Assembly: GCA_017885605.1 (NCBI GenBank)
Contig: JAFNFT010000071.1
Coordinates: 85,519 to 149,518, forward strand
Length of the DNA: 64,000 bases
From: Methanobacteriota archaeon
GTDB taxonomy: Archaea; Thermoplasmatota; E2; DHVEG-1
Reading direction: 5' to 3'
A program made the translations under genes and the position numbers. Below the pieces are notes generated by a model. It had not been told where the DNA came from, did no database searches, and saw only the letters and a program-made list of their open reading frames with translations. Positions within the stretch are counted from its first letter, which is position 1. Each line of letters starts with the position of its first letter. Below, piece after piece: positions 44,529 through 60,814 of the stretch.

Positions 44529-44529
44529 A

Positions 44530-44815
44530 GATTTGCCAGCGCAACAGATGCAAGAGTCATCGGCATGGCAAATAGAGTCAATGAGCTCATCGCAAATCAA
44601 ACAAGCATCATCTACACTAAAAGACGTAACTGGGATGTGAAAAAACGACTTATTTCATCAGTTGACAAAGTCAAAGACATCTTGAATTACAAGTCACAAA
44701 CATCATTTGAAGATGGTGTTTAACAACTGTATCCGTGGTTTACAAACAACTGGAATAATATTGAGGAATCTGCTGAGTTTCTCAAGTATCTGAAAAATCA
44801 ATGGGAAAAGAATAT
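44530..44815 (+). pseudogene. Decayed 3-prime remnant of an NAD-dependent epimerase/dehydratase gene, homologous to the C-terminus of 42331-43389, with an in-frame stop
   Basis: ...ELIANQTSIIYTKRRNWDVKKRLISSVDKVKDILNYKSQTSFEDGV*QLYPWFTNNWNNIEESAEFLKYLKNQWEK aligns with ...AHLINDLTGNPNGIKYIERRNWDVKTRLLSSVDKAKDILDYKPQTSFEAGAEQLYQWFVENWTLIQKSAEFAGYKKQQWEH. TAA at ~44720. No start or N-terminal part. Confidence 0.6.
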
Positions 44816-45999
44816 TGATAGAGGTGAGATGGTTGACATCAAAAAAAGATGTTGATGTATTTTCAGATGTAAAACGTTGCAGTAAATGTATTTTACCCCA
44901 AACTTTTCCAGGTATATCCTTTGACAAGAACGGTGTGTGTAAGTATTGTCATGACTGGGAACCTGTAAAAGTATTAGGTGAAAAAGAACTTGAAAAGAAA
45001 CTTCAGGAATATAAAAACAAAGGAGTAGAGTATGATGTTTTGGTCCCGTTTAGCGGTGGTAGGGATAGCTCATTTGTGTTGCATCAAATGGTTAAAAAAT
45101 ATCATATGAGAACTTTAGCAATTACTGTTGATAGTGGTTTTTTAACAAAAGAAGGTTTTCAGAACATAGAAACGGTTACCAAAGCATTACATGTTGATCA
45201 TGTATGGTTAAAAAATGAAGGAAAAATTGATACTTCGAAGCAGAACTGTAAAATTAAATTTCATGGCTGGCTAAAAAAACCATCGATTAACACTATTGTT
45301 CCTGTGTTGAACTCTGGTGATAAAACGATGAATCTTCAGATGTTTCAGTATGCTCATGATCATAATATTCCTGTGGTCATGGGTGGAAACAACATCGGGA
45401 ACAGTATTTTTGAGCAGGAGCATTGGAAGACCGGTTTTCTCGGTGTTTTCCCCAATGAACGAGGATACTACGGACCATCTGATCGGTTGAAGTTATCGTT
45501 TCTTTTTGGAGTCGAATATCTCCGAAATCCTGCGAACTTTAGTTTTCCTATTTTTAAAGAGTATTTCAAAGGAGCAAGTGTATATTTCTTTGAATCGTTT
45601 CTCAAACCAAACGATGTTGACACGCTAGGGTTCTACGACTATATCTACTGGGATGAAAAAAAGATACTGTCTACCATTCTGAAGGAAGCCGGTTGGAAAG
45701 GGGCGGCGGATACAACCGCAACTTGGCGGGTTGATGATTCCGCATATCCGTTAATTAACTACATGTATCATACACTCGTAGGTTTTACAGAGCATGATGA
45801 ATTCTATAGTAAGATGATTCGTGAGGGTCAGCTAACACGTAAAGAAGCATTGGAGCGATGTCTCTCAGATCAGAAACCCCGGTTGCCATCGCTTCATAGA
45901 ACGTTTGGGGAGTTGGACGTCACGAAAGAGCAGGTGGATGACTTACTCGAAAAATATAGGACGAAATTGCTAGGGCAGATCAAGGGAGATTACCGATGA
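44815..45999 (+). CDS. N-acetyl sugar amidotransferase (PP-loop ATP pyrophosphatase, WbuX/WbpG-like)
   Basis: N-terminal CxxC...CxxC (CSKCILP...CKYCHDW). PP-loop VPFSGGRDSSFVL. Matches the architecture of the LPS N-acetyl sugar amidotransferase family. Confidence 0.6.
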   Translation: MIEVRWLTSKKDVDVFSDVKRCSKCILPQTFPGISFDKNGVCKYCHDWEPVKVLGEKELEKKLQEYKNKGVEYDVLVPFSGGRDSSFVLHQMVKKYHMRTLAITVDSGFLTKEGFQNIETVTKALHVDHVWLKNEGKIDTSKQNCKIKFHGWLKKPSINTIVPVLNSGDKTMNLQMFQYAHDHNIPVVMGGNNIGNSIFEQEHWKTGFLGVFPNERGYYGPSDRLKLSFLFGVEYLRNPANFSFPIFKEYFKGASVYFFESFLKPNDVDTLGFYDYIYWDEKKILSTILKEAGWKGAADTTATWRVDDSAYPLINYMYHTLVGFTEHDEFYSKMIREGQLTRKEALERCLSDQKPRLPSLHRTFGELDVTKEQVDDLLEKYRTKLLGQIKGDYR

Positions 46000-46907
46000 A
46001 AATCGTCATACCAGGTGGTGCTGGGTTTGTTGGGCGAAATCTTGTCAGAATGCTCTATTCGACGAATCAAACCATGTCTGAAGTTATTATCTTCGATATC
46101 AACCAGATTAATTTAGAGTATGTCAAAAAGTATGGTGTTCACGCAGTCAATGCAGATCTCTCAAAACAAGGAGATTGGAATCATGAATTTGAGAATGCAG
46201 ACATGGTCATTAATCTTGCAGCTCAATTGTCTTCATCCAACCATGAACCATTCCATAGGAACAACGTATTGACTACGAAAAATATCATAGACGCAATGAA
46301 AAAAGCAAATGTTCAAAGAATCATTCATTTTAGTTCAGCAGCAGTTCTCTCTCTCTGGCAAGATGACTATGCTCGTACGAAAAATGAAGGGGAAAATCTC
46401 GTAAAGTCAAGTGATCTTGACTACTGTATTCTCCAACCCTCGATTATGTACGGACCAACCGATGAAACAAATATCGGCTATCTGATCAATTTTGCAAAAA
46501 AGATACCGGTTTTTCCCATACCCGGACAAGGAAAGTGGCCCAGACAACCTCTCTATATTGATGATGTATGTCGTTTGATTTTGAGAATTATTGAGGATTT
46601 CCCTCATAACGAGACTCTGAGTATCAATGGACAAGAGGTCATTTATTTCAAGGATATGGTCAAAATCGTCCTTCAAGAACTTGGAGGAATCAAATTTCGG
46701 GTTTTTTTGCCGATACGTCTTTTTACGGTCCTCATGATGATCTACCAGAAGGTAAAAGGGGTCACCGAATTTACCCCTGATCAAGTACGAGCTCTTACGA
46801 CCGTCGAGACCTTTCCAGAATACCCCTGGTGGGATACATTTGATATCCCAGTCACATCATTTGAGCAAGGTGTCAGAACAATGCTAACTCACAAGGAGAT
46901 GATATAA
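45996..46907 (+). CDS. NAD-dependent epimerase/dehydratase family protein (short form)
   Basis: IPGGAGFVGRNL and YARTK. Overlaps the upstream gene by 4 nt. Confidence 0.7.
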   Translation: MKIVIPGGAGFVGRNLVRMLYSTNQTMSEVIIFDINQINLEYVKKYGVHAVNADLSKQGDWNHEFENADMVINLAAQLSSSNHEPFHRNNVLTTKNIIDAMKKANVQRIIHFSSAAVLSLWQDDYARTKNEGENLVKSSDLDYCILQPSIMYGPTDETNIGYLINFAKKIPVFPIPGQGKWPRQPLYIDDVCRLILRIIEDFPHNETLSINGQEVIYFKDMVKIVLQELGGIKFRVFLPIRLFTVLMMIYQKVKGVTEFTPDQVRALTTVETFPEYPWWDTFDIPVTSFEQGVRTMLTHKEMI

Positions 46908-47020
46908 GGGGGGATTTGGGCTATTTCAAAGATTCCAAGCAATATCTATCTCGAATTCAAAGAATAATACTCAACTATGAAAAGAATATCTATGACTAAA
47001 TATTTTAGGAAACGAGTCGA

Positions 47021-48199
47021 ATGAAAATTCTATTCTTACAGGATACTGATTGGATTAAGCGTAATCCTCATCAACAAGTTCATTTAGCAGAACGTATGGT
47101 ACAAAGGGACCACGAGGTTCGTGTCATCGACTACGAAATCCTCTGGCATGATGAGAAGAAACGGGAGTTATTATCGAAAAAAAAGATTCATACCGTTAGT
47201 AAAGTCTTTCCTGACGTAAAAATCACCGTCATCCGCCCCCCGATTCTCAAAATACTCCTTCTTGATTATATCTCGATGCTTTTTACGTATTCGCGAGAAA
47301 TCAAACATCAGATCAAGGAGTTCAAACCCGATGTCATCTTCTCCATGGACATCCTTATTGCATTTCTCGCATATCCTCTTGCAAAGCGTCATGGTATCCG
47401 AGTCGTTTACTATACAATCGATATCGATTATCGCCTTATTCCCTATCAATTCCTTCAACCCCTTGGGAAATGGTTAGAGAGTTGGAATATCCGGCGTGCG
47501 GACCTGGTTCTCTCCATCAACGAAGGATTACGAGAATATACTATTCGAATGGGTGCCGATCCAAAGAAGACAATGGTGATTCGTGCTGGTGTCGATTTTC
47601 AGAGATTTCACTCGGGAGTTAACGGTGATGAGATACGGAAAAAATACGGTATTGGGCAGGATGATACTCTATTGTTTTTTGTCGGCTGGTTGTATCATTT
47701 CTCAGGATTAAAAGAAGTTGTAGTTGAGCTATCAAAAATAAAAAGAGACGACATTAAACTTTTAATCGTCGGCGATGGAGATGGTTATGATGATCTCAAA
47801 CAAATGATGTCAGACTATCATCTTGAAAATAAAATGATTATGACCGGTAAGCAACCATACGATTTACTTCCACAATATCTTGCTGCAGCAGATATCTGCT
47901 TACTTCCAGCATATAACAATGAGATTATGAGGGATATTGTACCTATAAAAATGTATGAATACATGGCAATGGGAAATCCTGTTATTGCTACAAGACTACC
48001 AGGTATTGAAAAAGAATTTGGTGATGATAATGGCATTATTTTTATTAATAATTCGAATGAAACAGTAAACAGATCATTAGAATTAATCGAAAAGGGAGTA
48101 ATAATCAGTGAAGGAAAAAAAGCGAGGAAGTTTATTGAAAAAAACGATTGGAACAAAATTACAGATGATTTTGAAAAGGTTTTAAAGGAATTAATATGA
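47021..48199 (+). CDS. Glycosyltransferase family 4 (GT-B)
   Basis: C-terminal GT4 pattern LLFFVGWLYHFSGLKEVV...IVGDGDGYDDLKQ...EYMAMGNPVIAT. Confidence 0.8.
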   Translation: MKILFLQDTDWIKRNPHQQVHLAERMVQRDHEVRVIDYEILWHDEKKRELLSKKKIHTVSKVFPDVKITVIRPPILKILLLDYISMLFTYSREIKHQIKEFKPDVIFSMDILIAFLAYPLAKRHGIRVVYYTIDIDYRLIPYQFLQPLGKWLESWNIRRADLVLSINEGLREYTIRMGADPKKTMVIRAGVDFQRFHSGVNGDEIRKKYGIGQDDTLLFFVGWLYHFSGLKEVVVELSKIKRDDIKLLIVGDGDGYDDLKQMMSDYHLENKMIMTGKQPYDLLPQYLAAADICLLPAYNNEIMRDIVPIKMYEYMAMGNPVIATRLPGIEKEFGDDNGIIFINNSNETVNRSLELIEKGVIISEGKKARKFIEKNDWNKITDDFEKVLKELI

Positions 48200-49335
48200 A
48201 AATTCTGCATGTTATTCCTTATTTCAATCCGAAGCGCGGCGGAGATGTGAATGTGTGTTATCACATTGCAAAACATCTCGCTAAGCGAGGATATGATGTA
48301 ACGATATTTACTACGGATTTTGAATTCGATGAGAAGTTTGCTCGTACTCTTAATGGTGTTCGTGTCGTTCCGTTTCATTGTTGTCTCAATATTCAATTAT
48401 TTCTTTATTCACCTCAGATGAAAAAGGAGTTGAAAAAAGAAATTAAAAATTTTGATATTATTCACGTACATGATTTTCGAACGTATCAGAATGTCGTAGG
48501 GCATCACTATGCAATGAACTATCACGTCCCTATTGTATTACAGGCTCATGGAGATATTCCGTTCTTTGAAAAAAGCAGATTAAAAACTCTTTATGATTTT
48601 GTTTGGGGAAAACGGATTTTAAATAATACGACAAAAGTTATTGCTCTTACTAAGGTGGAAGCAGAACAGTACAAGAAGATGGGTGTGAATCCAAATAAAA
48701 TTGAGATTATACCGAATGGAGTGGATCTCTCTGAATATGAGAACCTGCCTGAAAGAGGAATCTTTAGGAAAAAATATGGAATAAACAACGATGAAAAAAT
48801 TGTTTTGTATCTAGGTAGGATTCATAGGATTAAAGGTATTGATCTACTGGTCGAGGCATTCGCAGATCTGGAAAAAGAAATGGATGATGTGAAGCTTGTA
48901 ATTGCTGGGCCTGACGACGGATTTTTATCAATTTTGGAAAGGAAAATAAACGATTTGAAGATTGGTAGAAAAATTTTGTTTACAGGTCCACTTTATGAAC
49001 GGGATAAATTCGGAGCGTATGTGGATGCCGATGTCTATGTTCTTCCCTCCGTCTATGATGCATTTCCAAATACCGTTCTTGAAGCATGGGCTTGTGGCAC
49101 GCCTGTAATCGTTACGGATCGCTGTGGGATTGCCAACCTTGTGGACGATAAAGTCGGATGTGTAGTTGAATTTGATAAAAGTCAATTAAGGAATACAATG
49201 TTCAAGGTTTTGAGTAATGAAAAATTGAGGAGGAAATTTGGGGAAAATGGCAGGAAATTAGTTGATGAACGATTCGATTGGGGTAAAATTATTGATAGGG
49301 TAGAAAAAGTGTATTCTGCATTGAAGAACCGGTAA
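48196..49335 (+). CDS. Glycosyltransferase family 4 (GT-B)
   Basis: ILHVIPYFNPKRGGD...YLGRIHRIKGIDLLVEAF...IAGPDDG...EAWACGTPVIVTD. Overlaps the upstream gene by 4 nt. Confidence 0.85.
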   Translation: MKILHVIPYFNPKRGGDVNVCYHIAKHLAKRGYDVTIFTTDFEFDEKFARTLNGVRVVPFHCCLNIQLFLYSPQMKKELKKEIKNFDIIHVHDFRTYQNVVGHHYAMNYHVPIVLQAHGDIPFFEKSRLKTLYDFVWGKRILNNTTKVIALTKVEAEQYKKMGVNPNKIEIIPNGVDLSEYENLPERGIFRKKYGINNDEKIVLYLGRIHRIKGIDLLVEAFADLEKEMDDVKLVIAGPDDGFLSILERKINDLKIGRKILFTGPLYERDKFGAYVDADVYVLPSVYDAFPNTVLEAWACGTPVIVTDRCGIANLVDDKVGCVVEFDKSQLRNTMFKVLSNEKLRRKFGENGRKLVDERFDWGKIIDRVEKVYSALKNR

Positions 49336-49363
49336 AGATAGCTTTACAAGGAGTTGATTAATT

Positions 49364-50725
49364 TTGACAAGTGTAAATTCTGATGTATGCAATGTTGAAA
49401 AAAAGAAACGAATTCTCTTCATCGGTTATAACCTACCTCCACTGGGAGGTCCCCACAGTAACAGACTCATTAATTTTGTTAATTATCTTGATAAATTAGG
49501 TTGGAAGGTTGATGTATTGACAATTTCACCTCCTCCAAGTTTTCCTCTTTATGACAATAATTCAGGTAACTGTTTTCGAGAATCTATTAGGTTTTTCAGA
49601 ACTTCTCATGGATTTATAAATAGAACTTACTATGATATGATGAAAACTGCTAACGATAAAATAAAACATGCATACACATCCGATAGTAAAATAAATGCCA
49701 AAAAATTACGAACTTACCTCTTGAAAATTCTTAGACATATTGCAAATTCTGTATTGGTACCGGATAGCACGATTGAGTGGTTTCCTTTTGGAGTTTATCA
49801 AGGGCTCAAGCTAACAAAAAAATACAAATATGATCTTTTGATTTCTTCAGCATTTCCCGCTACTTGTCACTTTATTGCCTACATCATTAAGAAACGAAGA
49901 GGTCTGCCATGGATTGCTGATTACGGAGACCCATGGGTTTTTAATCCCACGTTCAATCCCAAAAGAATTAAGTTTCCTATTGAATATAAAGTAGAATCGA
50001 GTATTTTAAAAGCAGCTGATGCTATAATTGTGACAGCTGATGAAACTAAGCAGAATTATTTAAAAAACTATCCTGTGCTTAAGGAAGAAAAAATAATTGT
50101 TATACCGATGGGTACAGATTATAATTTGTTTAAAAGAATGCAAATTGAAAGATCAAAAAAATTTAGAATATTATATGCTGGTACGTTGTATGCTGGTACA
50201 AAATATGGATCTAAAAATCTAGAGCCGTTTTTAGATGCAGTTGAATTACTTTTTGAACAGGAGAAATTTAGGAAGGACATTGAAATCATTTTCATTGGTA
50301 ATATTCTAGATGATGCTATTGAAGTTATAGAAAACAAACAACTTCAGGATAAAGTAATACTTAAAGGGTATCTTCCACATGATAAAATCCCCTCTTTACT
50401 TATGGGTTCGGATATACTTCTTTTATTTGGCGGGGAGGGCGAAATTCAAGTTGCCAGTAAAATATTTGAGTACATCGCCGCACGGAGACCCATTTTATGT
50501 GTAAAAGGAAGTGAAAAGGATCCAACATTAAAATTACTTCAAGGATTGAATAGGGGAATTATTGTGGATAATAAAAAGGAGAATATTTATTCAGAAATAA
50601 TTGGGCTATACAATCTTTATCAAAAACAAGAACTTGAGGGGACATTCGATTTAAGAGCGAGACTGGATTGTTCATGGGAAAATAGGGTAAGGGTTTTAGA
50701 TAAAATATGTGGTGAATTAATATGA
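49364..50725 (+). CDS. GT-B fold glycosyltransferase (GT4-like, divergent)
   Basis: ILFIGYNLPPLGGPHSNRL N-terminal donor-site-like motif and C-terminal FEYIAARRPILC. Weaker match. Confidence 0.5.
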   Translation: MTSVNSDVCNVEKKKRILFIGYNLPPLGGPHSNRLINFVNYLDKLGWKVDVLTISPPPSFPLYDNNSGNCFRESIRFFRTSHGFINRTYYDMMKTANDKIKHAYTSDSKINAKKLRTYLLKILRHIANSVLVPDSTIEWFPFGVYQGLKLTKKYKYDLLISSAFPATCHFIAYIIKKRRGLPWIADYGDPWVFNPTFNPKRIKFPIEYKVESSILKAADAIIVTADETKQNYLKNYPVLKEEKIIVIPMGTDYNLFKRMQIERSKKFRILYAGTLYAGTKYGSKNLEPFLDAVELLFEQEKFRKDIEIIFIGNILDDAIEVIENKQLQDKVILKGYLPHDKIPSLLMGSDILLLFGGEGEIQVASKIFEYIAARRPILCVKGSEKDPTLKLLQGLNRGIIVDNKKENIYSEIIGLYNLYQKQELEGTFDLRARLDCSWENRVRVLDKICGELI

Positions 50726-50821
50726 TGGCCAAAAAATATCTTAAAACCCAAACTTTGGATTGTTAAAATATGAAGTTTAGATATTGTTTTAGATATATCT
50801 TTTTTTGGCACTAATAGGGGA

Positions 50822-51589
50822 ATGTTATATATGGTAATGAAGAACATGAGATTTAAAAATAGATCTGTAATTGTAACAGGTAGCTCAAGGGGTTTAGGAA
50901 AGGTAATGGCTTTGGCCTTCGCAAGGGAAGGGGCCAATATTGTAGTTAATTATGTAAAAAATGTCAAAGCAGCAAAGGAGGTTGCAAATTCAATTGGGAA
51001 AATTGGCAGTCGCTTCTTAGTGATTAAAGCCGACGTTGCAGAGTATAAGCAAGTAGAGAAATTAGTGGAACAAACTTTAGATGAGTTTGGAAAGATAGAT
51101 GTATTGATCAATAATACCGGCGTTCATAATGACAGTGTTGTTTGGAAGATGGATAATGAACAATGGAATGACATTATAGATGTTAATCTTACAGGTGTTT
51201 TTCATTGTACAAGGGCTGTAATAGGACATATGATAAAACAAGAATATGGGCGGATTATAAATATGTCCTCGGTTGTTGGACAAATTGGTGCATTTGGCAC
51301 ATCAAACTACTCTGCTTCAAAAGCAGGTATAATTGGGTTTACCAAAGCAGTAGCAAAAGAGGTTGCAAAAAAAGGAGTAACAGTAAATGCTATTGCAGTA
51401 GGTTACATTGATGTAGGCATGGGCCGGAGACTTCCACAAGAACTGAAAAATACTTTAATTCAACAGACGCCCATTGGAAGATTTGGGAAGCCAAAAGAAG
51501 TTGCACAAACAGTTATGTTTTTAGCTTCAAAGGATGCTAGTTTTATCACAGGCCAAGTGATTAATGTAAATGGAGGCTATTATTTATGA
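50822..51589 (+). CDS. SDR family oxidoreductase (3-oxoacyl-ACP reductase FabG-like)
   Basis: VTGSSRGLGKVMA, NNTGV and catalytic SNYSASKAG. Confidence 0.85.
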   Translation: MLYMVMKNMRFKNRSVIVTGSSRGLGKVMALAFAREGANIVVNYVKNVKAAKEVANSIGKIGSRFLVIKADVAEYKQVEKLVEQTLDEFGKIDVLINNTGVHNDSVVWKMDNEQWNDIIDVNLTGVFHCTRAVIGHMIKQEYGRIINMSSVVGQIGAFGTSNYSASKAGIIGFTKAVAKEVAKKGVTVNAIAVGYIDVGMGRRLPQELKNTLIQQTPIGRFGKPKEVAQTVMFLASKDASFITGQVINVNGGYYL

Positions 51590-52455
51590 TTCTATGTAAT
51601 AAAAAGAAAGTTGGATACAAATTCAAAGTTGGTAAGAATGTCAAGATAGTATGTGATACAATGATAGTGGGCGATGAAACAATAATAGAAGATGGTACAG
51701 ATATTTATTTACATGGTAAATTGGAAATCGGTAATTTAAGTAATATCGGCCCAAATACTACTATTAGAGGAAATAATGTATCCATTGGCTCTGAGTTTTT
51801 TAGTGATGGAGGCTTAGAAATTGGTGGAGGGGGTTGGCACAATCCAATTGCAAATCTAATTATAGGTGATAGATGTGTTATGCATAACAATCATATCAAT
51901 ATCAACAGTCCAATTACTATATGTAATCATGTTGGTTTGAGCCCCAATGTAGATTTAATAACACACGGGTACTGGCTTTCAATATTGAAAGGATTCCCTT
52001 TTAGAGAAGGGCCAATTACTATAAAAGATAATGTGATCGTTGGAAGAAATAGTATTATTTTAGCTAATGTTTTAATAGGTGAAAATGCCGTTATTGGTGC
52101 TGGTTCCATCGTTACAAAAAATGTTGATGCTTATCATGTAGTTGGAGGTGTCCCGGCCAAAACAATTTACATCATCAAACCAAATAAATTAACAATGACG
52201 GAAAAGGAAAAAATAGCCAAAAATATCATAAATGAGTATAAAAAATCATTAGCGTTTAGAAAAATCACCGATGTTAAAATAAACTTAGAATATCCAAAAG
52301 TTTATGTAAACAACGCAGTTTTTAATTTAGAAAAAGAGACTTTTGATGTAAAAGATCATACAGATATTACTGATGATTTTAGGGATTTTATGCGAAGAAA
52401 GGGCATATGGTTTTATGGTAGAAGGTTTAAATCTATTAGAAAAGTGATATTATGA
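51586..52455 (+). CDS. Hexapeptide-repeat (left-handed beta-helix) acyl/acetyltransferase
   Basis: Runs of [LIV]-G-x-x-x-x hexads (IGNLSNIGPNTTIRGNNVSIGSE...IGDRCVMHNNHININ...IGENAVIGAGSIVT). Confidence 0.65.
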   Translation: MILCNKKKVGYKFKVGKNVKIVCDTMIVGDETIIEDGTDIYLHGKLEIGNLSNIGPNTTIRGNNVSIGSEFFSDGGLEIGGGGWHNPIANLIIGDRCVMHNNHININSPITICNHVGLSPNVDLITHGYWLSILKGFPFREGPITIKDNVIVGRNSIILANVLIGENAVIGAGSIVTKNVDAYHVVGGVPAKTIYIIKPNKLTMTEKEKIAKNIINEYKKSLAFRKITDVKINLEYPKVYVNNAVFNLEKETFDVKDHTDITDDFRDFMRRKGIWFYGRRFKSIRKVIL

Positions 52456-53057
52456 AAATATTAGTAATAGGAGCACATCCTGATGATATCGAACTGGGAT
52501 GTGGCGGAACTATCAATTTATATAATTCGAATAACCACCCGGTTTATGGTCTAATATTAAGTAATGGAGAAAGATCAGGTGACCCGGTAATCAGGAAACA
52601 AGAGACTGTAGATTCATTGAACGCATTAGGTGTTAAAAGGTTGTTCTTTGGAGAATTACCTGATACTAAAATAGGAAATGATATATCTACAATTAGTGTA
52701 ATAGAAAATATTGTTAACAAATTAAAACCGGATATTATTTTTACTCATTCTATAAACGAGATACATCAAGATCATCGGAATACTGCATTATCTACATTTT
52801 CAGCAGCGAGAAATGTTCCCACAATACTATGTTATGAAAGCCCATCATTGATGTTAGATTTTAAACCTCAATGCTACTACGATATAATAAAAACCATTGA
52901 TCAAAAAATTGAGGCTTTAAAACTCCATAAATCCCAAATTGATAAACGATATTTTAAAATCGATGCTATTTTTGGTCTTGCTAAGTATAGGGGAAATCAA
53001 ATGAATCTAAAATATGCAGAATCATTTGAAGTATTTAAAATGCTAAATTTTGTTTAA
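52452..53057 (+). CDS. PIG-L/LmbE family N-acetyl-sugar deacetylase (copy 1)
   Basis: GAHPDDIELGCGGT plus a downstream HQDH metal-binding motif. Confidence 0.8.
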   Translation: MKILVIGAHPDDIELGCGGTINLYNSNNHPVYGLILSNGERSGDPVIRKQETVDSLNALGVKRLFFGELPDTKIGNDISTISVIENIVNKLKPDIIFTHSINEIHQDHRNTALSTFSAARNVPTILCYESPSLMLDFKPQCYYDIIKTIDQKIEALKLHKSQIDKRYFKIDAIFGLAKYRGNQMNLKYAESFEVFKMLNFV

Positions 53058-53125
53058 TATATTTTAAAGCAGAACATATAATGATGATGGATGAAAAAGA
53101 AAATCTAGAGGATCGATAAGTTAAA

Positions 53126-54313: not shown

Positions 54314-55464
54314 ATATTTGTGTAATTGCTTCGGGGTATCCTTCTCGATCTAATCCTGTTTTAGATATTTTTATCCATGAACAAGCGAGAGAGATGGTCA
54401 GACAAGGATTGAACATTCATGTGATTACGATCGGCACTAGTGAAGATTTTTGTGAGGAGATAATGGATGGAGTCTATGTCCATAGAGTAATTCGTGATGA
54501 TTTTAAACCATCGTATTTGCTATTTCTTGCATTCTCCTTAAAGGCCTTAAGGGCTGCGATTCAATTAAATCGTAAATTGAGATTTGACATAATCCATTCT
54601 CATTTTGCAGATCATGCTGGGTTTGCCGGAGCAGTCATATCAAAATTGTTAGGAAAACCCTTTGTGCTAACATCACATGGTTATGATATATATTATAACA
54701 AAAAGTTAGGTTATGGGCTAGGTTCCCATTTGCCCTCACGACTTTTAATATGGTTTATTCTTAAAATGCCAAGCAAAATAACAGTAGCAAGTAAGGCATT
54801 AAAGAATCAGCTAAAAACTTGGAATGTTGATTCCAAGAAAATCGAGATTATAAATAATGGGATAAATTTGGATTTCATAAAGAGCGATATTACTCCAAAA
54901 ATAATTAAAAATTCTCAAGTTATATTAACAGTAGCCAATCTTTTACCAATTAAAAACATTGGATATATGCTGGAAGCAATGCCTTATGTGCTTGAAAAAT
55001 TTACAGATGTTCGATATATAGTTGTGGGCGATGGCCCCGAGAGAGAAAAATTGGAGAGAATCGCAGACAAAAGAGAATTGACCAATAATGTTGATTTTGT
55101 CGGCGAACTTAGAAATAATGAATTGCCACGATATTATTCAATGGCTGATGTATTTGTGTTGCCATCGGTTCATGAAGGTTTTGGGATTGTAAAGTTAGAA
55201 GCATTTGCTTTTGGAGTGCCTGTTATTGTTACAAATGGCGGAGGAGCTGTTGAAGGGGTAAACCATGGGGAAAACGGATTTGTGGTGCCGCTTAACCAGC
55301 CGAAAAAATTAGCAGAAGCAATTATCACAATACTAGCTAACCCTGAGTTAAAAGAGAGTATGGGTCGAAGAGGAAAAGAAATCGTGATGAAAAACTATCT
55401 ATGGAAACATAATGTCAAAAAAGTTATCAAAGTCTACAGTGGGTTGATGAGTAATCACACGTGA
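54310..55464 (+). CDS. Glycosyltransferase family 4 (GT-B)
   Basis: LTSHGYD..., VVGDGPEREKLE and LEAFAFGVPVIVTNGGG. Confidence 0.85.
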   Translation: MNICVIASGYPSRSNPVLDIFIHEQAREMVRQGLNIHVITIGTSEDFCEEIMDGVYVHRVIRDDFKPSYLLFLAFSLKALRAAIQLNRKLRFDIIHSHFADHAGFAGAVISKLLGKPFVLTSHGYDIYYNKKLGYGLGSHLPSRLLIWFILKMPSKITVASKALKNQLKTWNVDSKKIEIINNGINLDFIKSDITPKIIKNSQVILTVANLLPIKNIGYMLEAMPYVLEKFTDVRYIVVGDGPEREKLERIADKRELTNNVDFVGELRNNELPRYYSMADVFVLPSVHEGFGIVKLEAFAFGVPVIVTNGGGAVEGVNHGENGFVVPLNQPKKLAEAIITILANPELKESMGRRGKEIVMKNYLWKHNVKKVIKVYSGLMSNHT

Positions 55465-55467
55465 TAT

Positions 55468-56598
55468 ATGATGGAAAAAATAAAAATTTTCGCATTGGTT
55501 GAGGGGAAAATCATAGATGAACTTAGCGATAGGGTTAGCGGGACTTTTATACGGATTCACTATATATTAAAACATTTACAACAGCATAAAGACATTAAGT
55601 TAATCTACATTCCTTTTGAATATAAGCAGAAATATTCAGATACATATTCCAGAATCAGCTGGTGTATTGATACATTTTACCATTTTGCAATTCCCTTTTT
55701 TTCCTTGCTAATCATTATTTTCAAGCGTCCTCATTTCATTTATTTTTCATATCCGAACGTTGTTTATAATGATAAGTTCAATATCCCTTTGCTGAAATTT
55801 GCCAAAAAAATCGGGACAAAGCTATTGATGTATTCACATGATTGGACGGAGCAGAGCGAGGTTTCAGGGCAGGGCAAAAACAAGTTTTTATCAGAAAAGC
55901 TAGAAGACGAGTTGGTAAAGCTTTCTGATGTTTTGGTGGTAGTATTGAGTAAATATCCAGAGCATGAAACGGCGATACTTCCTGGTGGTTTGGAAGAAAA
56001 CGAATTTGAAAGCTTGAAATATGAAATCCATGATGGAAGGTTTAACATTGCGTATACAGGTGCTATGGTGATAGATACCGGAGTTAACCTACTTGTGGAT
56101 GCGGCTGTTATGCTTCATAAAAAATATCCCTACATAAAACTTTATCTTTTTGGAAGAATCTTTGCATTAGATGATGAAACAAAGAAAAAGATAGAAGAAA
56201 CAAGTTTCATCATACAAAAAGTAGTACCAAGAACGAAATTAATTAGTTATTTCTCTGAGATTGATGTATTTGCTTATGCATATAACCCAAATATTCCTTA
56301 TTATAACAATACTAGACCAACAAAATTTTTTGAATACATTGGTTCTGAGATACCATTTATAGCAACGAAGTGCGATGGATTAAAGATGATTAGTGATGGA
56401 AAGGGATTTTTGTGGGTTAATTATTCAGTGAAGGGTTTTTGTGAAAAATTAGAATATTTATTAAAAAACCCACAAAAGAGGATGAGATTGAGTAAAGAAT
56501 TGCATGAATTGAAAAAGGATAACACCTGGGAAAAAAGAGCTGATACGTTACATGAGATACTATTACAAAATTTAATAAAGGAAGAACTGTCAAAATGA
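55468..56598 (+). CDS. GT-B-like glycosyltransferase (divergent)
   Basis: Position, size and weak GT4-like C-terminal pattern only (IAYTGAMVIDTGVNLLVDAA...FEYIGSEIPFIATKCDG). Confidence 0.4.
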   Translation: MMEKIKIFALVEGKIIDELSDRVSGTFIRIHYILKHLQQHKDIKLIYIPFEYKQKYSDTYSRISWCIDTFYHFAIPFFSLLIIIFKRPHFIYFSYPNVVYNDKFNIPLLKFAKKIGTKLLMYSHDWTEQSEVSGQGKNKFLSEKLEDELVKLSDVLVVVLSKYPEHETAILPGGLEENEFESLKYEIHDGRFNIAYTGAMVIDTGVNLLVDAAVMLHKKYPYIKLYLFGRIFALDDETKKKIEETSFIIQKVVPRTKLISYFSEIDVFAYAYNPNIPYYNNTRPTKFFEYIGSEIPFIATKCDGLKMISDGKGFLWVNYSVKGFCEKLEYLLKNPQKRMRLSKELHELKKDNTWEKRADTLHEILLQNLIKEELSK

Positions 56599-56675
56599 TA
56601 CATTCTGTGAAAAAACAGAAGGAGTGGCATATGCAATATTTGGATAAAATATCTCTTTCAAATAAATTATAGGAC

Positions 56676-58070
56676 TTGTTTATAATGAGCAAATTAGATT
56701 GTGTATTAGTTTATCCTGAACCAAGTTTAGAAAGTCCAGCTAAAGGTCCAGCTTTAAGTATTTTTTATCCAGGCGCTATGTTAGAATATAAGGGTTATAA
56801 AGTTGAATATATAGATCTCAGATTTGACAAGCAAAAAGTTTTGGAGAATATCATCTCTGAATGTCCATTGGCCGTAGGTATTAGTTCTATGACAGGTTAT
56901 CAGTTAGTCGGTGCTAAAAAAGTAATTGAGTTTGTTAAGGAATATGATAAAAATATTAAAACGATTTTGGGTGGACCCCATGTTACTATTCAAAAAGAAA
57001 AGGTATTGAAAGAACAAAAAGGAATTGATTATTACATCGTGGGGGAAGGTGAAATTCAATTATGTAATCTCATGCATTGCATTAAGAATAACAAGAAATT
57101 TGATCCTAAACGGTATGAGAATAGTCATGTTAATTTAGATACAATTCCATCACCTTTAACTGAAAAAACTAAACCTTATTATAAAATAGCAAATAATGCC
57201 AACTCGATCAGAGTTCTAACGACAAGAGGTTGTATGTATTCCTGTAATTTCTGTTATAATCAAGCAGTATATAATGGTAAATGGGAAAAAATGGGCATTC
57301 ACATTTTTGAGAAAGAGATTGAGAATTTAAACAAAGAATTTGACATTAAACATATTATCCTAGGTGATGATAACATAGGAAATAATAAGAAAAGAATAAA
57401 GAATATTGGGGATATAATGAAGCGTTATGATATCAAATGGCATTCATCTATTAGGCCTGAGTGGGTTAAACCCGATATGATCAATATCTTGGAGAAAGGT
57501 GGTTGTGACTCTCTATTTCTTGGAATCGAGTCCGGGTCTGAAAGAATTTTAACTGAAGTTATCAATAAGAGGTTGCCTCGCGGTTTGCTAGATATAAGAG
57601 ATTGCACTAAAAATCTAGGTAAATCAACTATTAGCGGTATGTATTCTTTTATGTGTGCTATTCCAACAGAAACAAATGAAGAACTGTTAGAGTCAATGAA
57701 TTTGGCTGATTGGATATGTAAAACTGATCCAAATGCTCGATTAGGATTCTATGTTTATGCGCCGTATCCGGGAACTAAAATGTATGAAATGGCTTTGGCA
57801 ACAGGATTTAATGAACCAAGAAATTGGGACGAGTGGAGCAAAGTCAGTCTTTCAGAATCTTGGGGGGATGAGTGGGAAAATTTTTACTACATGACGGGAT
57901 TGCATTTTAGAAAGGATAAAACGGAACAGAATTTTCCAGGTATCCGAAGAGATATTATTAAACTATACGAAGACTTGGCGAACTTGCACTGGCGAAACAG
58001 AACCTGGAAGAACTTCCCAGGGAAAAATGTTAAACATCTTATTATAAAAGAACGGCATAGATTGAACTAG
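56676..58070 (+). CDS. B12-binding domain radical SAM protein (class B rSAM, putative methyltransferase)
   Basis: N-terminal cobalamin-binding-like region and CxxxCxxC cluster TTRGCMYSCNFCYN. Confidence 0.8.
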   Translation: MFIMSKLDCVLVYPEPSLESPAKGPALSIFYPGAMLEYKGYKVEYIDLRFDKQKVLENIISECPLAVGISSMTGYQLVGAKKVIEFVKEYDKNIKTILGGPHVTIQKEKVLKEQKGIDYYIVGEGEIQLCNLMHCIKNNKKFDPKRYENSHVNLDTIPSPLTEKTKPYYKIANNANSIRVLTTRGCMYSCNFCYNQAVYNGKWEKMGIHIFEKEIENLNKEFDIKHIILGDDNIGNNKKRIKNIGDIMKRYDIKWHSSIRPEWVKPDMINILEKGGCDSLFLGIESGSERILTEVINKRLPRGLLDIRDCTKNLGKSTISGMYSFMCAIPTETNEELLESMNLADWICKTDPNARLGFYVYAPYPGTKMYEMALATGFNEPRNWDEWSKVSLSESWGDEWENFYYMTGLHFRKDKTEQNFPGIRRDIIKLYEDLANLHWRNRTWKNFPGKNVKHLIIKERHRLN

Positions 58071-58266
58071 AGGATTTGAGCCTTTGAGAAAGTGCATTAT
58101 CATGAACGTCCCATCTTGTCTTTAAATTTTAATTTAAAGCTATATTCGGTCTAATGATTCTAGTTTTTAAATTTTTTTATTTACTTATTTGAAATAAAAA
58201 ATTTCAACCCATTTTATTTTTCATTACATATACTTTTCTATTTTTAAAAAATAATGGAGACAGATT

Positions 58267-58905
58267 ATGAGATCATTCGATAAAATTTTGGTTTTATCTC
58301 CACACGCAGATGATGGAGAGGTTGGTGCAGGAGCTACAATTGCAAGATTTATTGAAGAAGATAAAGAGGTTCATTATGTGGCATTTTCAAGCTGCGAATT
58401 ATCAGTACCAAATGGATTTCCAAAAGATATTTTGAAGAAGGAATGTAAAAAGGCAACTAAAATGTTAGGAATTTTTCAAGAAAATTTATATATGTTGAAT
58501 TATGAAGTCAGGAAATTTCCTACATTTAGGCAAGAAATTTTAGAGGATATAGTACAACTCAATAAAAAAATCAGGCCAGATTTAATTTTGACTCCTTCAT
58601 CAAATGATACTCATCAAGACCATCAGACAATTTTTAAAGAAACATTAAGGACATTCAAAAAAACATCATCTATATGGGGTTATGAACATCCCTGGAACAA
58701 TTTTACATTCACTACAGACGTTTTTGTTAAATTGGAAGAAAAACACATTCAAAAGAAGATCAATGCTTTAAAACAATACAAATCTCAAGAGTTCCGTACT
58801 TATTTTGATGAGCGTTATATTAAATCATTAGGTTTTACAAGAGGGACACAAGTAAACTTTAATTATGCGGAATGTTTTGAGTTATTAAGAATGTTAGTGA
58901 AATAG
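58267..58905 (+). CDS. PIG-L/LmbE family N-acetyl-sugar deacetylase (copy 2)
   Basis: LSPHADDGEVGAGAT and THQDHQ. First gene after a 200-bp AT-rich promoter-like gap. Confidence 0.8.
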   Translation: MRSFDKILVLSPHADDGEVGAGATIARFIEEDKEVHYVAFSSCELSVPNGFPKDILKKECKKATKMLGIFQENLYMLNYEVRKFPTFRQEILEDIVQLNKKIRPDLILTPSSNDTHQDHQTIFKETLRTFKKTSSIWGYEHPWNNFTFTTDVFVKLEEKHIQKKINALKQYKSQEFRTYFDERYIKSLGFTRGTQVNFNYAECFELLRMLVK

Positions 58906-58925
58906 GAAGGATACGAGGAAGTTCC

Positions 58926-59675
58926 ATGATTTTCACTACTCTTGAAGATAAAATGAGTCCAATATTAGCTAAACAAACAGATTTGAACGCCGTCAGAGTC
59001 GCCATTCATCAACCTAACTACTTGCCATATATTGGATTTTTTCAAAAGATGGCTTTAGTAGATGTTTTTGTTATTTTGGATGTGGTACAATTTTCCAAAG
59101 ACAGTTATACACAAAGAACGAAAATAAGAACAAAAGATGGATGGATGTGGCTAACAATACCTATAGAAAAAAAATATTATTTTAAACCCATTAAAGATAT
59201 TTATTTACCACAAGATAAAAAATGGTTTAAAAAACATAAACTATCAATTATCTCAAACTATTCAAAATATAAATTTATTGATGATAAATTTATTGATGAA
59301 TATTATTCTTGTCAAGGAAATTTTAAGAAATTGCATGAATTCAATGAATATGGGATTTTTTATTTAAAAGATAAATTCAGAATAAAAACTAGAATTGTTA
59401 GAGCAAGTGAGTTGAATATCGATGAGAAGTTAAAATCTTCAGATTTGCTGGTGGACATTGTAAAAAAAGTCGAAGGGGATATTTATATTTCTGGTTCGGG
59501 AGGCAAAAACTACATGGATACTAAGAAGTTTTTGATAAATAAAATAAAGCTAAAGTATTTTGAATTTAAACCGATGGAGTATCCTCAAAGATGGAATGGC
59601 TTTGAACCTTATATGAGTGCGATTGATTTGTTATTTAATGTTGGGGAACCAAATGAGAATATGTTTTTTTGGTAA
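58926..59675 (+). CDS. WbqC-like family protein
   Basis: VAIHQPNYLPYIGFFQKMALVDVFVILDVVQFSKDSYTQRTKIRTKDGWMWLTIP fits my recollection of the WbqC consensus (IHQPnYlPw.GyF.K...aD.FV.lDdVQf......NRN.I......wLTvP). Confidence 0.65.
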   Translation: MIFTTLEDKMSPILAKQTDLNAVRVAIHQPNYLPYIGFFQKMALVDVFVILDVVQFSKDSYTQRTKIRTKDGWMWLTIPIEKKYYFKPIKDIYLPQDKKWFKKHKLSIISNYSKYKFIDDKFIDEYYSCQGNFKKLHEFNEYGIFYLKDKFRIKTRIVRASELNIDEKLKSSDLLVDIVKKVEGDIYISGSGGKNYMDTKKFLINKIKLKYFEFKPMEYPQRWNGFEPYMSAIDLLFNVGEPNENMFFW

Positions 59676-60789: not shown

Positions 60790-60814
60790 TGTTGGCAATA
60801 TCATATAACTAAGG

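Follow-up and report, generated by a model that had tools for sequence, protein, structure and literature searches.

An archaeal ABC-transporter-dependent glycan locus in which three modules appear to edit the N-acetyl groups of hexosamines

Which decorations are put on the sugars of a cell-surface glycan by the genes found between positions 44815 and 59675 of a 64,000-nucleotide stretch of archaeal DNA (contig JAFNFT010000071.1; hereafter the window)? A first-pass annotation had listed in this interval an amidotransferase, an LbH acyltransferase, an SDR, two PIG-L deacetylases, WbqC, a B12-type radical SAM (rSAM) enzyme and six GT4 glycosyltransferases, and all of them were confirmed by open reading frames, Pfam and NCBIfam, on the + strand and no more than a few codons away from the positions first given to them. 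Judged from the sequence, domain support for the named genes is strong and chance is ruled out. The interval is, however, only part of a unit that extends from 37316 to beyond 64000, the exporter and the pathway-defining upstream genes having been missed. The glycan cluster genes are uninterrupted and co-directional on the + strand and include those for eight glycosyltransferases (one GT2 and seven GT4), WecB, Wzm/Wzt and two methyltransferases; several independent metagenome assemblies carry the same gene order with 97–100% identity. The cluster is one large ABC-transporter-dependent cell-surface glycan locus of a methanogen-like archaeon and the interval is its tailoring core, in which three separate modules appear to alter or replace the C2 N-acetyl group of hexosamines. 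What was observed directly is the gene content, the assignment to families and motifs, resemblances in fold, the conservation of gene neighbourhoods and fusions between domains; which substrates are used, in what sequence the steps follow, which acyl groups and amino acids are attached and what the rSAM catalyses are all inferred from these.

Upstream of the tailoring core the unit contains:
37316..38215, + strand: GT2, AglJ/PpgS-like polyprenyl-phosphate sugar synthase (Pfam Glycos_transf_2, 98.8 bits)
38423..40216, + strand: 597-aa polytopic membrane protein (hydropathy scan: about 14 hydrophobic segments and a C-terminal soluble part)
40236..41330, + strand: WecB, non-hydrolysing UDP-GlcNAc 2-epimerase (TIGR00236, 449 bits, cutoff 210)
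41327..42304, + strand: extended SDR, epimerase/dehydratase family (PF01370, 139 bits; NCBIfam equivalogs all under cutoff)
42331..43389, + strand: extended SDR, GalE/RmlB/TviC-like (PF01370, 175.7 bits; NCBIfam matches all under cutoff)
43569..44528, + strand: class I SAM methyltransferase (Methyltransf_24, PF13578, 49.9 bits)

The GT2 matches AglJ (146.8 bits) and PpgS (125 bits) in NCBIfam, both under cutoff, and the membrane protein, for which Pfam and NCBIfam searches gave no match, is a candidate GT-C-like transferase or ligase. WecB, which scores only 98 bits with the NeuC model of NCBIfam, would supply UDP-ManNAc, and the sugar supply would be limited to the UDP-GlcNAc/UDP-ManNAc pool. 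For the SDR at 42331 an FnlA/PseB-like identity was rejected; Polysacc_synt_2 reaches only 51 bits. A tblastn search of the whole window revealed no NeuB, CMP-synthetase, DegT aminotransferase, UDP-sugar dehydrogenase or GFO enzyme. Since the window lacks NeuB, aminotransferase and uronate genes, the nonulosonic-acid (legionaminic, pseudaminic) and diacetamido-uronic acid pathways are excluded; the comparison with these pathways that had been recommended is therefore inapplicable.

The first module (44815–46907) consists of two genes:
44815..45999, + strand: divergent PP-loop N-acetyl-sugar amidotransferase (NASAT) of the WbuX/WbpG type (TIGR03573, motifs)
45996..46907, + strand: extended SDR (PF01370, 91.8 bits), overlapping the NASAT gene by 4 nt

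The NASAT, whose gene starts at 44824 according to other gene callers, has no Pfam match at E ≤ 0.001 and matches the WbuX model TIGR03573 with E = 5e-45 and 154 bits, which is under the curated cutoff of 203. It carries a Zn-ribbon motif (C22-x2-C25...N39-G-V-C42-x2-C45) and a PP-loop motif (S80-GGRDS85), both defined for the family in PMC10607449, and across the two it matches LpNASAT (PDB 8WEX) with E = 9e-8; its C-terminal half is diverged. The family assignments of the first-pass annotation hold, that of 44815 as WbuX-type at the motif level only. The SDR at 45996 is translationally coupled to the NASAT gene. The NASAT would adenylate the acetamido carbonyl and then add ammonia to yield an acetamidino sugar; a scan of genes from 30 to 64 kb revealed no HisH/HisF-like ammonia supplier. 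There is an archaeal precedent for such an amidotransferase: the N-glycan of Methanococcus maripaludis contains an acetamidino sugar made by the WbpG homologue MMP1081 (PMC2952790), and the earlier view that archaeal glycans with decorations of this kind are undescribed was therefore too strong.

The third module (56685–59675) comprises:
56685..58070, + strand: cobalamin-type (class B) rSAM enzyme, 461 aa, of a small WbqC-linked clade
58267..58905, + strand: PIG-L2, PIG-L/LmbE-family de-N-acetylase (PF02585, 73.6 bits)
58926..59675, + strand: WbqC (PF08889, 206.6 bits), the true start being probably about 20 codons downstream of 58926

Here PIG-L2 would free the amine, WbqC would activate an amino acid or another carboxylate with ATP and ligate it to this amine, and the dedicated cobalamin rSAM would then act on an unactivated carbon of the product and most likely methylate it. 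The rSAM starts with the ATG at 56685 rather than at 56676, public assemblies recording only the 461-aa product, and has a B12-binding domain (PF02310, 81.6 bits) and a Radical_SAM domain (61.3 bits) with CX3CX2C at C183/C187/C190. In its clade WbqC lies directly downstream, in glycan loci, in four of five cases as compared with 0 of 51 for the outgroup of more distant homologues (Fisher p = 1.4e-5), which argues against a generic maturase unrelated to sugar chemistry. The window and a variant locus (L023) have in common a 95%-identical block whose first base lies 39 bp ahead of the start of the rSAM gene.

Methylation is the favoured rSAM reaction. Among NCBIfam families the enzyme matches PhpK methyltransferases best (127 bits), with HpnJ at 90 bits and all matches far under cutoff; of its four nearest neighbours in structure, three are cobalamin-dependent methylases; and the sequence of the N-terminal B12 domain matches those of proteins that truly bind cobalamin (TsrM, OxsB, B12-dependent mutase). 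The closest structure is nevertheless that of the non-methylating AprD4, an aminosugar diol-dehydratase, although AprD4 matches the rSAM core only and not the B12 domain. It is possible, if distinctly less likely, that the enzyme is no methylase and catalyses an AprD4-like radical dehydration/deoxygenation, with an SDR of the cluster as reductase, or an HpnJ- or OxsB-like ring rearrangement; the substrate would then be the hexosamine de-N-acetylated by PIG-L2, and WbqC would act on the product or independently. The several SDRs of the cluster would fit this, as would the HpnI (GT), HpnK (deacetylase) and HpnJ (rSAM) series, which acts on GlcNAc and then on GlcN and in which a PIG-L-type deacetylase followed by an rSAM provides a non-methylating precedent for the PIG-L2/rSAM pair. 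Moreover, there are WbqC-PIG-L loci in the viral collection with a non-B12 rSAM, so that cobalamin methyl transfer is not universally required by this pairing. The C-methylated sugar suggested at first is thus one option besides others, and a methylating rSAM might act on the acyl group that WbqC installs rather than on the sugar.

WbqC had been listed without a role. Its best global fold match is BshC, and its longest and best superpositions are with aminoacyl-tRNA synthetase (aaRS) catalytic cores and BshC (176–206 aligned residues versus about 100–110 for nucleotidyltransferases). WbqC is predicted to be a minimal HUP/class-I-aaRS-like, BshC-like nucleotide-binding enzyme, and we propose that it is an ATP-dependent ligase acylating the freed sugar amine, for which BshB then BshC and MshB then MshC are the model. 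PIG-L2 (metal motifs PHADD and HQDH) is 69% identical to the WbqC-adjoining PIG-L of another locus (L022). A PIG-L is encoded within a few genes of WbqC for six of eight distinct cellular WbqC genes and in 33 of 35 viral-collection loci; many of the latter are near-duplicates of one another, and after clustering at 70% identity the count is 11 of 13. The pairing is kept across archaea, bacteria and viral-collection contigs. Of the cellular loci without PIG-L, one (L018) has an aminotransferase, which is another source of a free amine, and one (L021) only a weak polysaccharide-deacetylase-like neighbour. Fusions of WbqC with a GNAT acetyltransferase occur in both domain orders and resemble MshC then MshD. 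A precedent for de-N-acetylation followed by amino-acylation is VimE/VimA, and the E. coli O121 antigen, from the serogroup that gave the wbq genes their name, carries an amide-linked N-acetyl-glycine, WbqC being linked to O121 by gene naming. It is rather unlikely that WbqC is no amide ligase but another HUP-fold enzyme, such as a nucleotidyltransferase by which a sugar or an acid is activated, or a partner of PIG-L that binds nucleotides without catalysis, with LbH or a GNAT re-acylating after PIG-L2. In favour of this reading, the Foldseek E-values are not significant, a sequence-level link to any ligase was not found, WbqC (about 230 aa) is much smaller than MshC or BshC, and the FemAB-like aminoacyl transferases that adjoin WbqC in L021 and L022 could be the true amino-acid adders. 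The superpositions argue for a ligase all the same, and the coupling with amine-generating PIG-L or DegT, the GNAT fusions and the O121 N-acetyl-glycyl group fit one that leaves an acetylatable amine. By its predicted aaRS/BshC-like fold and the GNAT fusions, WbqC is now the probable re-acylating enzyme of module 3.

The second module (50822–53057) is formed by:
50822..51589, + strand: FabG-type 3-ketoacyl reductase (SDR; adh_short_C2, 219 bits; TIGR01830; NF009466)
51586..52455, + strand: LbH acyltransferase, 289 aa, with a conserved C-terminal extension (Hexapep, Pfam)
52452..53057, + strand: PIG-L1, PIG-L/LmbE-family de-N-acetylase (PF02585, 84.5 bits)

PIG-L1 would remove the N-acetyl group, the reductase would make a 3-hydroxyacyl thioester, in the simplest case 3-hydroxybutyryl-CoA from acetoacetyl-CoA, and LbH would move the 3-hydroxyacyl group to the freed amine to give an N-(3-hydroxyacyl)hexosamine, which is the logic of LpxC then LpxD. 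Archaea make acetoacetyl-CoA for the mevalonate pathway, and O antigens are well known to contain N-(3-hydroxybutanoyl) amino sugars. PIG-L1 has the metal motifs AHPDD and HQDH and matches diacetylchitobiose deacetylase with E = 1.5e-13; the best NCBIfam match of both PIG-Ls is BshB1, far under cutoff (88 bits for PIG-L1). SDR, LbH and PIG-L occur together in all three archaeal and bacterial loci sampled, one of them in a Lokiarchaeota MAG and another in a bacterial genome of 4.6 Mb, with LbH identities of 77%, 44% and 42%; the full-length LbH family is present in both domains, and the LbH-adjoining SDRs of L103 and L104 are orthologues of that at 50822 (59–60% identity). In the bacterial locus L105 a true FabH (381 bits, cutoff 249) is encoded directly 5' of the three genes, and together with these it points to an exchange of N-acetyl for N-(3-hydroxyacyl). 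The PIG-L that adjoins LbH in L105 resembles PIG-L2 more than PIG-L1, so that the deacetylases are not cleanly split between the modules.

The closest solved relatives of LbH are acetyl-CoA-dependent acetyltransferases of both O- and N-type, so it is the gene context that suggests N-acylation. It is unlikely, though worth considering, that LbH is such an ordinary O- or N-acetyltransferase and that the SDR reduces or oxidises a sugar, the product being acetylated and not 3-hydroxyacylated: the SDR scores just under the cutoff of the FabG equivalog TIGR01830 (290 versus 298 bits) and is also similar to sugar/polyol dehydrogenases, and archaea generally lack ACP-based fatty-acid synthesis. But it would make no sense for a co-conserved PIG-L to remove acetyl if acetyl were then put back, L105 has a genuine FabH directly upstream of the trio, and the top scores of the SDR are with 3-ketoacyl and acetoacetyl-CoA reductases (259.5 bits with the FabG subfamily model NF009466, cutoff 222; 265 bits with the acetoacetyl-CoA reductase model). 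The initial proposal that hexosamines are de-N-acetylated and then re-acylated or amidinated is backed by the conserved SDR-LbH-PIG-L and PIG-L-WbqC neighbourhoods.

The remaining genes are:
47021-48199, 48196-49335 and 49364-50725, + strand: three GT4 (Pfam Glycos_transf_1/Glyco_transf_4)
53126-54313, 54310-55464 and 55468-56598, + strand: three GT4 (Pfam)
59617..60789, + strand: seventh GT4 (start about 59617–59653; Pfam)
60815..61669, + strand: Wzm-type ABC-2 permease (PF01061, 43.3 bits; Wzm/RfbD model, 41.7 bits, under cutoff)
61653..62954, + strand: Wzt-type ABC ATPase with C-terminal Wzt_C carbohydrate-binding domain (PF00005, 80.6 bits; PF14524, 48.1 bits)
63048..63950, + strand: FkbM-family methyltransferase adjoining the exporter (TIGR01444, 100 bits, cutoff 37.7)

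The GT4 at 59617 lies within the 95%-identical block and is co-inherited with module 3. That it forms with PIG-L2 and WbqC a soluble GlcN-based bacillithiol- or mycothiol-like metabolite instead of a glycan decoration is very improbable, for in spite of the parallel to BshA/BshB/BshC and MshA/MshB/MshC, of BshA (102 bits, cutoff 274) and BshB1 being the best NCBIfam matches of the GT4 and the PIG-Ls and of the fold match to BshC, the Bsh scores are all far under cutoff, the three genes are embedded in and co-inherited with Wzm/Wzt and GT genes, and WbqC homologues occur in O-antigen, nonulosonic-acid, bacillosamine-type and viral glycan loci.

The GT2 and the seven GT4 would build the chain and Wzm/Wzt would export it, its end likely being capped by the FkbM methyltransferase; L023 differs in lacking FkbM and in having a sulfotransferase inserted between GT4 and Wzm. 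Taken as a whole, an ABC-dependent glycan cluster with three N-acetyl-editing modules of the substrates and chemistry proposed here is the probable reading of this archaeal locus.

The window carries genes of the kind expected for an ABC-transporter-dependent polysaccharide pathway. ORF listing and scans with Pfam and NCBIfam confirmed all the genes named in the first-pass annotation, each on the forward strand and at the coordinates given there, and from 37316 to the end of the window the genes run in one direction with tight spacing, forming a unit that exceeds the interval given there. The DNA recurs with 97–100% identity and the same gene order in several independent metagenome assemblies, which is why the locus is considered to be real and stable. 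The seeming truncation of the GT4 gene at 48196 in some metagenome contigs is a difference between gene callers, the DNA being 100% identical. No match was obtained when the window was scanned with Rfam and for tRNA genes.

Genes of the cluster, by position in the window unless another contig is named; (+), forward strand
Upstream of the first-pass interval (+), AglJ/PpgS-like GT2
38423–40216 (+), upstream of the interval, 597-aa protein with about 14 transmembrane segments and without family
40236 (+), upstream of the interval, WecB (449 bits; cutoff 210)
41327 and 42331 (+), upstream of the interval, two generic extended SDRs
Upstream of the interval (+), Methyltransf_24 enzyme
44815–45999 (+), divergent N-acetyl-sugar amidotransferase (NASAT), module 1
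45996–46907 (+), extended SDR, module 1
50822 (+), FabG-like SDR, module 2
51586 (+), LbH acyltransferase of the hexapeptide type, module 2
52452 (+), PIG-L deacetylase (PIG-L1), module 2
56685–58070 (+), B12-binding radical SAM enzyme (rSAM), module 3
58267 (+), PIG-L deacetylase (PIG-L2), module 3
58926 (+), WbqC, module 3
59617 (+), downstream of the interval, seventh GT4, inherited alongside module 3
Downstream of the interval (+), Wzm permease, Wzt ATPase with the carbohydrate-binding domain Wzt_C, and FkbM methyltransferase
L001 (identical metagenome contig) 17376–19262, just past the window end, 628-aa polytopic protein

Six GT4 genes are interspersed among the tailoring genes. The ABC export genes are above the gathering scores of PF01061, PF00005 and PF14524 and below the cutoffs of the specific NCBIfam equivalogs. 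The cluster resembles the ABC-transporter-dependent O-antigen pathways of the E. coli O8/O9a type in having Wzm, Wzt with Wzt_C, many GT4 genes and a methyltransferase beside the exporter as possible chain terminator, no Wzx/Wzy being seen. It differs from them in its archaeal host with dolichol-type carriers, in the lack of a WbdD-like kinase/methylase terminator and in the two unclassified 14-TM proteins that flank it. These flanking proteins of 597 and 628 aa, each with about 14 hydrophobic segments and a soluble C-terminal part, may act as GT-C-type transferases, as polymerases or as ligases; in L023, the locus of a related strain or species, the same position after Wzt is taken by an ORF of 624 aa that likewise matches no family.

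Outside the glycan cluster, the window encodes histidine kinases with MEDS and PAS domains, DUF1616, and archaeal type IV pilins that contain DUF2341, a gene content from which the host is judged to be a methanogen-like archaeon. The pilins are in an archaeal type IV pilus-like operon (12789–21029, − strand). Two large pilin-like proteins (583 and 749 aa) of this operon have Pilin_N at the N terminus and DUF2341 in the interior, and they are accompanied by a membrane protein similar to T2SSF and an ATPase similar to T2SSE; the pilin-like proteins are possible carriers of the glycan of the neighbouring cluster. Two sensor kinases are unusual: one of 1064 aa (6575–9769, +), in which a double KaiC domain is fused to PAS and histidine kinase domains, and one of 1715 aa (24759–29906, −), a histidine kinase that contains some nine PAS domains.

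Which amino sugars are available for tailoring follows from the genes that are missing. In tblastn searches of the 64-kb window with queries from NeuB to GFO taken from the related loci L019 and L020, NeuB, CMP-synthetase, DegT, UDP-sugar dehydrogenase, GFO oxidoreductase and PglD were all absent, the sole match being the weak one expected between Epimerase_2 and WecB; when every ORF of the cluster was scanned with Pfam, genes for nonulosonic and diacetamido-uronic acids were likewise lacking. This leaves C2 amines of GlcNAc/ManNAc-type sugars as the only available amino groups, and the comparison with the legionaminic, pseudaminic and diacetamido-uronic acid pathways that had been suggested does not apply here. 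Relatives of the rSAM-WbqC pair do sit in NeuB/CMP-synthetase loci, but a nonulosonic acid pathway was rejected here because the window has no such genes. A UDP-L-FucNAc/L-FucNAm pathway (FnlA/B/C plus WbuX) for 40236–45999 was rejected because the genes at 41327 and 42331 code for extended SDRs of a generic kind, with no more than a weak Polysacc_synt_2 match, and that at 40236 for a plain WecB.

The two PIG-L proteins (52452 and 58267) score 84.5 and 73.6 bits with PF02585 (cutoff 28.2) and contain the metal/catalytic motifs (A/P)H(P/A)DD and HxDH, as AHPDD/HQDH and PHADD/HQDH, respectively. Among solved structures they come closest to those of diacetylchitobiose deacetylases and BshB. With 88 and 71 bits against the 182.5 required by the BshB1 equivalog TIGR04001 they are, judged by sequence, not bacillithiol enzymes.

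Two motifs characterise the family to which the amidotransferase of module 1 is assigned, the PP-loop SGGXDS and the tetracysteine CXXCXn[GN]XCXXC, which binds Zn (PMC10607449). Both are found in the 44815 protein, as S80-G-G-R-D-S85 and as C22-SK-C25 ... N39-G-V-C42-KY-C45, and it is exactly across this region that LpNASAT (8WEX) aligns. The match to TIGR03573 (154.3 bits, E = 5e-45) is under the curated cutoff of 203.2 and comes in two stretches, the best of which spans only model positions 2–172 of 344; a Pfam match was not obtained at E ≤ 0.001. Since the C-terminal half has diverged and the curated cutoff is missed, the protein is treated as a divergent NASAT, which would turn the acetamido group of a sugar into an acetamidino group. 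With WbuX, WbpG, LfnA, PseA, LpNASAT and the archaeal MMP1081 it shares the Zn-ribbon tetracysteine, the PP-loop ATP pyrophosphatase and the setting in a glycan cluster; it departs from them in its score, in its C-terminal half, in its translational coupling to an extended SDR, with whose gene it has a 4-nt overlap, and in that HisH/HisF-like partners were not seen near it. The N-glycan of Methanococcus maripaludis already contains an acetamidino sugar, made by the WbpG homologue MMP1081 (PMC2952790), and the predicted chemistry of module 1 is for this reason not new for archaea, contrary to the novelty that had been claimed for it. Literature on MMP1084/AglU was not found.

In module 2 the genes of the FabG-like SDR, LbH and PIG-L1 overlap by 4 nt each. 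The SDR exceeds the cutoff of the FabG subfamily NF009466 (259.5 bits; cutoff 222) and is just below that of the FabG equivalog TIGR01830 (290.4 bits; cutoff 297.75), which the SDR of the related locus L103 passes with 306.6 bits. LbH belongs to a family of proteins of 275–290 aa that are conserved from end to end and occur in Lokiarchaeota, Euryarchaeota, Bacteroidota and WOR-3, and in all three contexts sampled LbH is accompanied by an adh_short SDR and a PIG-L. The order is PIG-L, SDR, LbH in L103 (LbH 77% identical), PIG-L, GT2, SDR, LbH in L104 from Lokiarchaeota (44%), and FabH, SDR, LbH, PIG-L in L105, a bacterial genome of 4.6 Mb (42%); the SDRs of L103 and L104 are 59–60% identical to that of the window. 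The FabH of L105 is genuine (381 bits; cutoff 249). The standard route to a 3-hydroxyacyl thioester is via KAS III and then a ketoreductase. Conservation of a deacetylase alongside would be pointless unless another group took the place of the acetyl, and we infer that module 2 exchanges N-acetyl for N-(3-hydroxyacyl), by the logic of LpxC followed by LpxD. The simplest donor in an archaeon would be 3-hydroxybutyryl-CoA formed from acetoacetyl-CoA. Bacterial O antigens commonly contain N-(3-hydroxybutanoyl) amino sugars (PMC7685785).

As in lipid A synthesis by LpxC/LpxD, a GlcNAc derivative would be de-N-acetylated and an LbH protein would then add a 3-hydroxyacyl group to the amine; unlike there, the deacetylase is of the PIG-L type, the LbH, with 34 bits, does not qualify as LpxD, the host is archaeal, and the donor is probably a short 3-hydroxyacyl-CoA from a dedicated FabG-like reductase. 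It should be noted that solved relatives of the LbH include O- as well as N-acetyltransferases, which qualifies the proposed N-acyl exchange, and that the PIG-L of L105 is nearer to PIG-L2 than to PIG-L1, which qualifies the partition of the deacetylases between modules.

WbqC, which the first-pass annotation correctly listed while leaving its role incomplete, is here proposed to be the amide-forming partner of PIG-L. The window protein (58926) matches PF08889 with 206.6 bits (cutoff 21.3) over model positions 1–214 of 218. The family, named after the wbq genes of E. coli O121, is very large, with 15,277 representative clusters (50% identity clusters, E ≤ 1e-3), and is highly conserved, with 60–80% identity between archaeal phyla; it has an invariant HQPNY after beta-1 and YISGxGG after a late strand. 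Literature on its function was not found, and a profile search of PDB sequences yielded no relative among solved proteins. HIGH and KMSKS motifs were not detected in WbqC, nor was sequence homology to BshC/MshC-type ligases, with which it is compared by working principle and not filed as a family member. The HUP fold, to which a WbqC of the class-I-aaRS type would belong, also includes nucleotidyltransferases.

The gene neighbourhoods point to a deacetylase partner. PIG-L adjoins WbqC twice within one archaeal contig and also in 33 of 35 IMG/VR contigs (11 of 13 clusters at 70% identity), usually at a distance of 5 bp or less. The usual order in IMG/VR is PseB-like dehydratase, epimerase, PseC-like aminotransferase, WbqC, PIG-L, then, in 11 loci, a non-B12 radical SAM protein of 358 aa, and after it an uncharacterised 314-aa protein and a GT2; an example is L107 (5193–12579). 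The contigs (L106–L140, mostly 30–170 kb) are from a viral collection and putatively viral, and their cassette looks like virus-encoded amino-sugar tailoring. Two cellular loci are without PIG-L, of which L018 has a DegT aminotransferase as alternative source of a free amine and the archaeal L021 has only a weak polysaccharide-deacetylase-like neighbour. Six long WbqC proteins in which the WbqC domain is single were examined, and four of them carry a fused GNAT acetyltransferase, in both domain orders.

Tandem duplications of WbqC, with two or three matches per polypeptide, occur in P0372 (494 aa) and P0382 (489 aa). In the archaeal loci L021 (1372–6835) and L022 (4803–13169) WbqC lies near DUF354, FemAB/Acetyltransf_6 proteins (VimA-like aminoacyl transferases) and long proteins weakly similar to polysaccharide deacetylase, and L022 has two WbqC/PIG-L/methyltransferase sets about 6 kb apart.

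In the proposed mechanism PIG-L would expose the sugar amine, WbqC would use ATP to ligate an amino acid or other carboxylate onto it, and GNAT, if present, would cap the new amine. The adjacency of PIG-L or DegT and the GNAT fusions are indirect support for the ligation. WbqC, as predicted ligase, and PIG-L would thus reproduce the logic of BshB followed by BshC and of MshB followed by MshC and MshD. There are differences: the products of the bacillithiol (BshA/BshB/BshC) and mycothiol (MshA/MshB/MshC/MshD) pathways are soluble thiols rather than polymer decorations; WbqC has about 230 aa, corresponding to the core only, with no detectable sequence similarity to BshC/MshC; and in the window the Bsh model scores are below cutoff and a dedicated B12-rSAM is added. 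The O121 antigen of E. coli contains an amide-linked N-acetyl-glycine. In Porphyromonas gingivalis a 2-N-seryl sugar is formed by deacetylation by VimE and amino-acid transfer by VimA, and the Wbp/Vim pathway of this organism and Tannerella forsythia offers a parallel in that an amino sugar of the glycan is de-N-acetylated at C2 and then N-aminoacylated with Ser or Gly (PMC7468200), and in that FemAB/VimA-like genes are found near WbqC in L021 and L022. Unlike in the cluster under study, its acylating enzyme is FemAB/GNAT-like and its deacetylase is of another family, whereas the window has no FemAB-like gene and its sugar is not a 2,3-diamino uronic acid.

The rSAM starts at ATG 56685, and the resulting 461-aa product is the only one in public assemblies. 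Its CX3CX2C cysteines (C183, C187 and C190) are invariant in two alignments (A2 and A3), PF04055 scoring 61.3 bits, and they are preceded by a cobalamin-binding Rossmann domain (PF02310, 81.6 bits). It does not belong to a characterised subfamily: PhpK is best with 127 bits against 600, followed by HpnJ (90 against 578), MJ_0865/MgmA (50 against 360) and AprD4 (45 against 500). Beyond the same species (97% identity) there are about 30 protein clusters at 37–48% identity, after which identity falls to about 30%, and in GTDB representative genomes only distant relatives (22–27% identity) are present. Unlike the class B methylases MgmA, CysS, TsrM and TokK, OxsB and the B12-like AprD4 and HpnJ, the window enzyme is in a small clade without name, far under every curated class B family cutoff and defined by an adjacent WbqC gene. 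Of five distinct loci of the clade, four (from Chloroflexota, Deltaproteobacteria and two metagenome contigs) have WbqC directly downstream and three have a PIG-L in the vicinity, as compared to none of 51 outgroup loci, counted only if at least 1.5 kb of downstream flank was present, with WbqC or PIG-L (Fisher p = 1.4e-5).

The locus of the clade without WbqC is L017 (10001–12545), where a 366-aa protein, for which no family was found, is directly downstream in a NeuB/CMP-transferase/carbamoyltransferase neighbourhood; this protein may functionally replace WbqC.

As to the reaction, a rearrangement as catalysed by OxsB, or other non-methylating rSAM chemistry, could also be envisaged. Direct precedents, none of them methylating, exist for an rSAM that works on a hexosamine after a deacetylase, namely the HpnI, HpnK, HpnJ system (PMC13459092) and AprD4 acting on paromamine. 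AprD4, however, matches only the rSAM core (positions 181–386), whereas the N-terminal domain, for which PF02310 gives the 81.6 bits, matches proven cobalamin binders: TsrM at 24–148, OxsB at 37–301 and a B12-dependent mutase at 30–98. These matches speak for a genuine cobalamin enzyme and, as methylases make up four of the five cobalamin-dependent neighbours, for methylation. All curated subfamily cutoffs are missed widely. Methylation of the sugar or of the group installed by WbqC is the most likely option, to which we give a roughly even chance. Confidence in sugar C-methylation had been too high at first.

Comparison with L023 shows how the cluster is assembled. The DNA is 95% identical from window position 56646 through GT4 and 94% identical through Wzm and Wzt (L023 1–17383 versus window 56646–63023), the shared block beginning 39 bp upstream of the rSAM start, and there is zero DNA similarity upstream of 56646. 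There the place of the window's genes is taken in L023 by four GT4 genes of other kinds, a GH130-like protein and, directly before rSAM, an Epimerase_2; NASAT and FabG-LbH-PIG-L are absent within 8 kb. From this sharing pattern it is concluded that rSAM-PIG-L2-WbqC-GT4 moves with the exporter as one block and that modules 1 and 2 are exchangeable cassettes. L023 has a sulfotransferase inserted between GT4 and Wzm and lacks the FkbM gene, which suggests cassette exchange and a different chain-end modification, sulfate for methyl.

Archaeal surface glycans are chemically diverse and their tailoring enzymes mostly uncharacterised. The outline proposed initially, deacetylation followed by re-acylation or amidination, was right, and the cluster is predicted to combine known kinds of chemistry in an archaeal exporter-dependent glycan locus, all chemical assignments being predictions. 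New are the function proposed for WbqC, its pairing with PIG-L in sequences from cells and the viral collection, and the B12-rSAM clade that WbqC defines. It is a tentative and, taken as a whole, rather unlikely proposal that WbqC is a minimal aaRS-like ligase aminoacylating sugar amines with PIG-L in archaea, bacteria and large viruses, joined here by a dedicated cobalamin rSAM that C-methylates the residue or the sugar. If true, the product would be a non-proteinogenic N-aminoacyl hexosamine, and both the decoration and the enzyme pairing would be previously undescribed.

Three concrete and testable predictions of N-acyl editing come from the locus. The SDR-LbH-PIG-L trio would be a portable 3-hydroxyacyl-swap cassette common to archaea and bacteria and as such useful for annotation. 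For WbqC a function is proposed for a widespread family with which fold, neighbourhoods and domain fusions agree, and as partner it limits the range of substrates to be considered for a class B rSAM that could not otherwise be classified. And since WbqC-PIG-L, often with another radical SAM protein, is found in many large contigs of the viral collection, this chemistry may matter in virus-host surface interactions.
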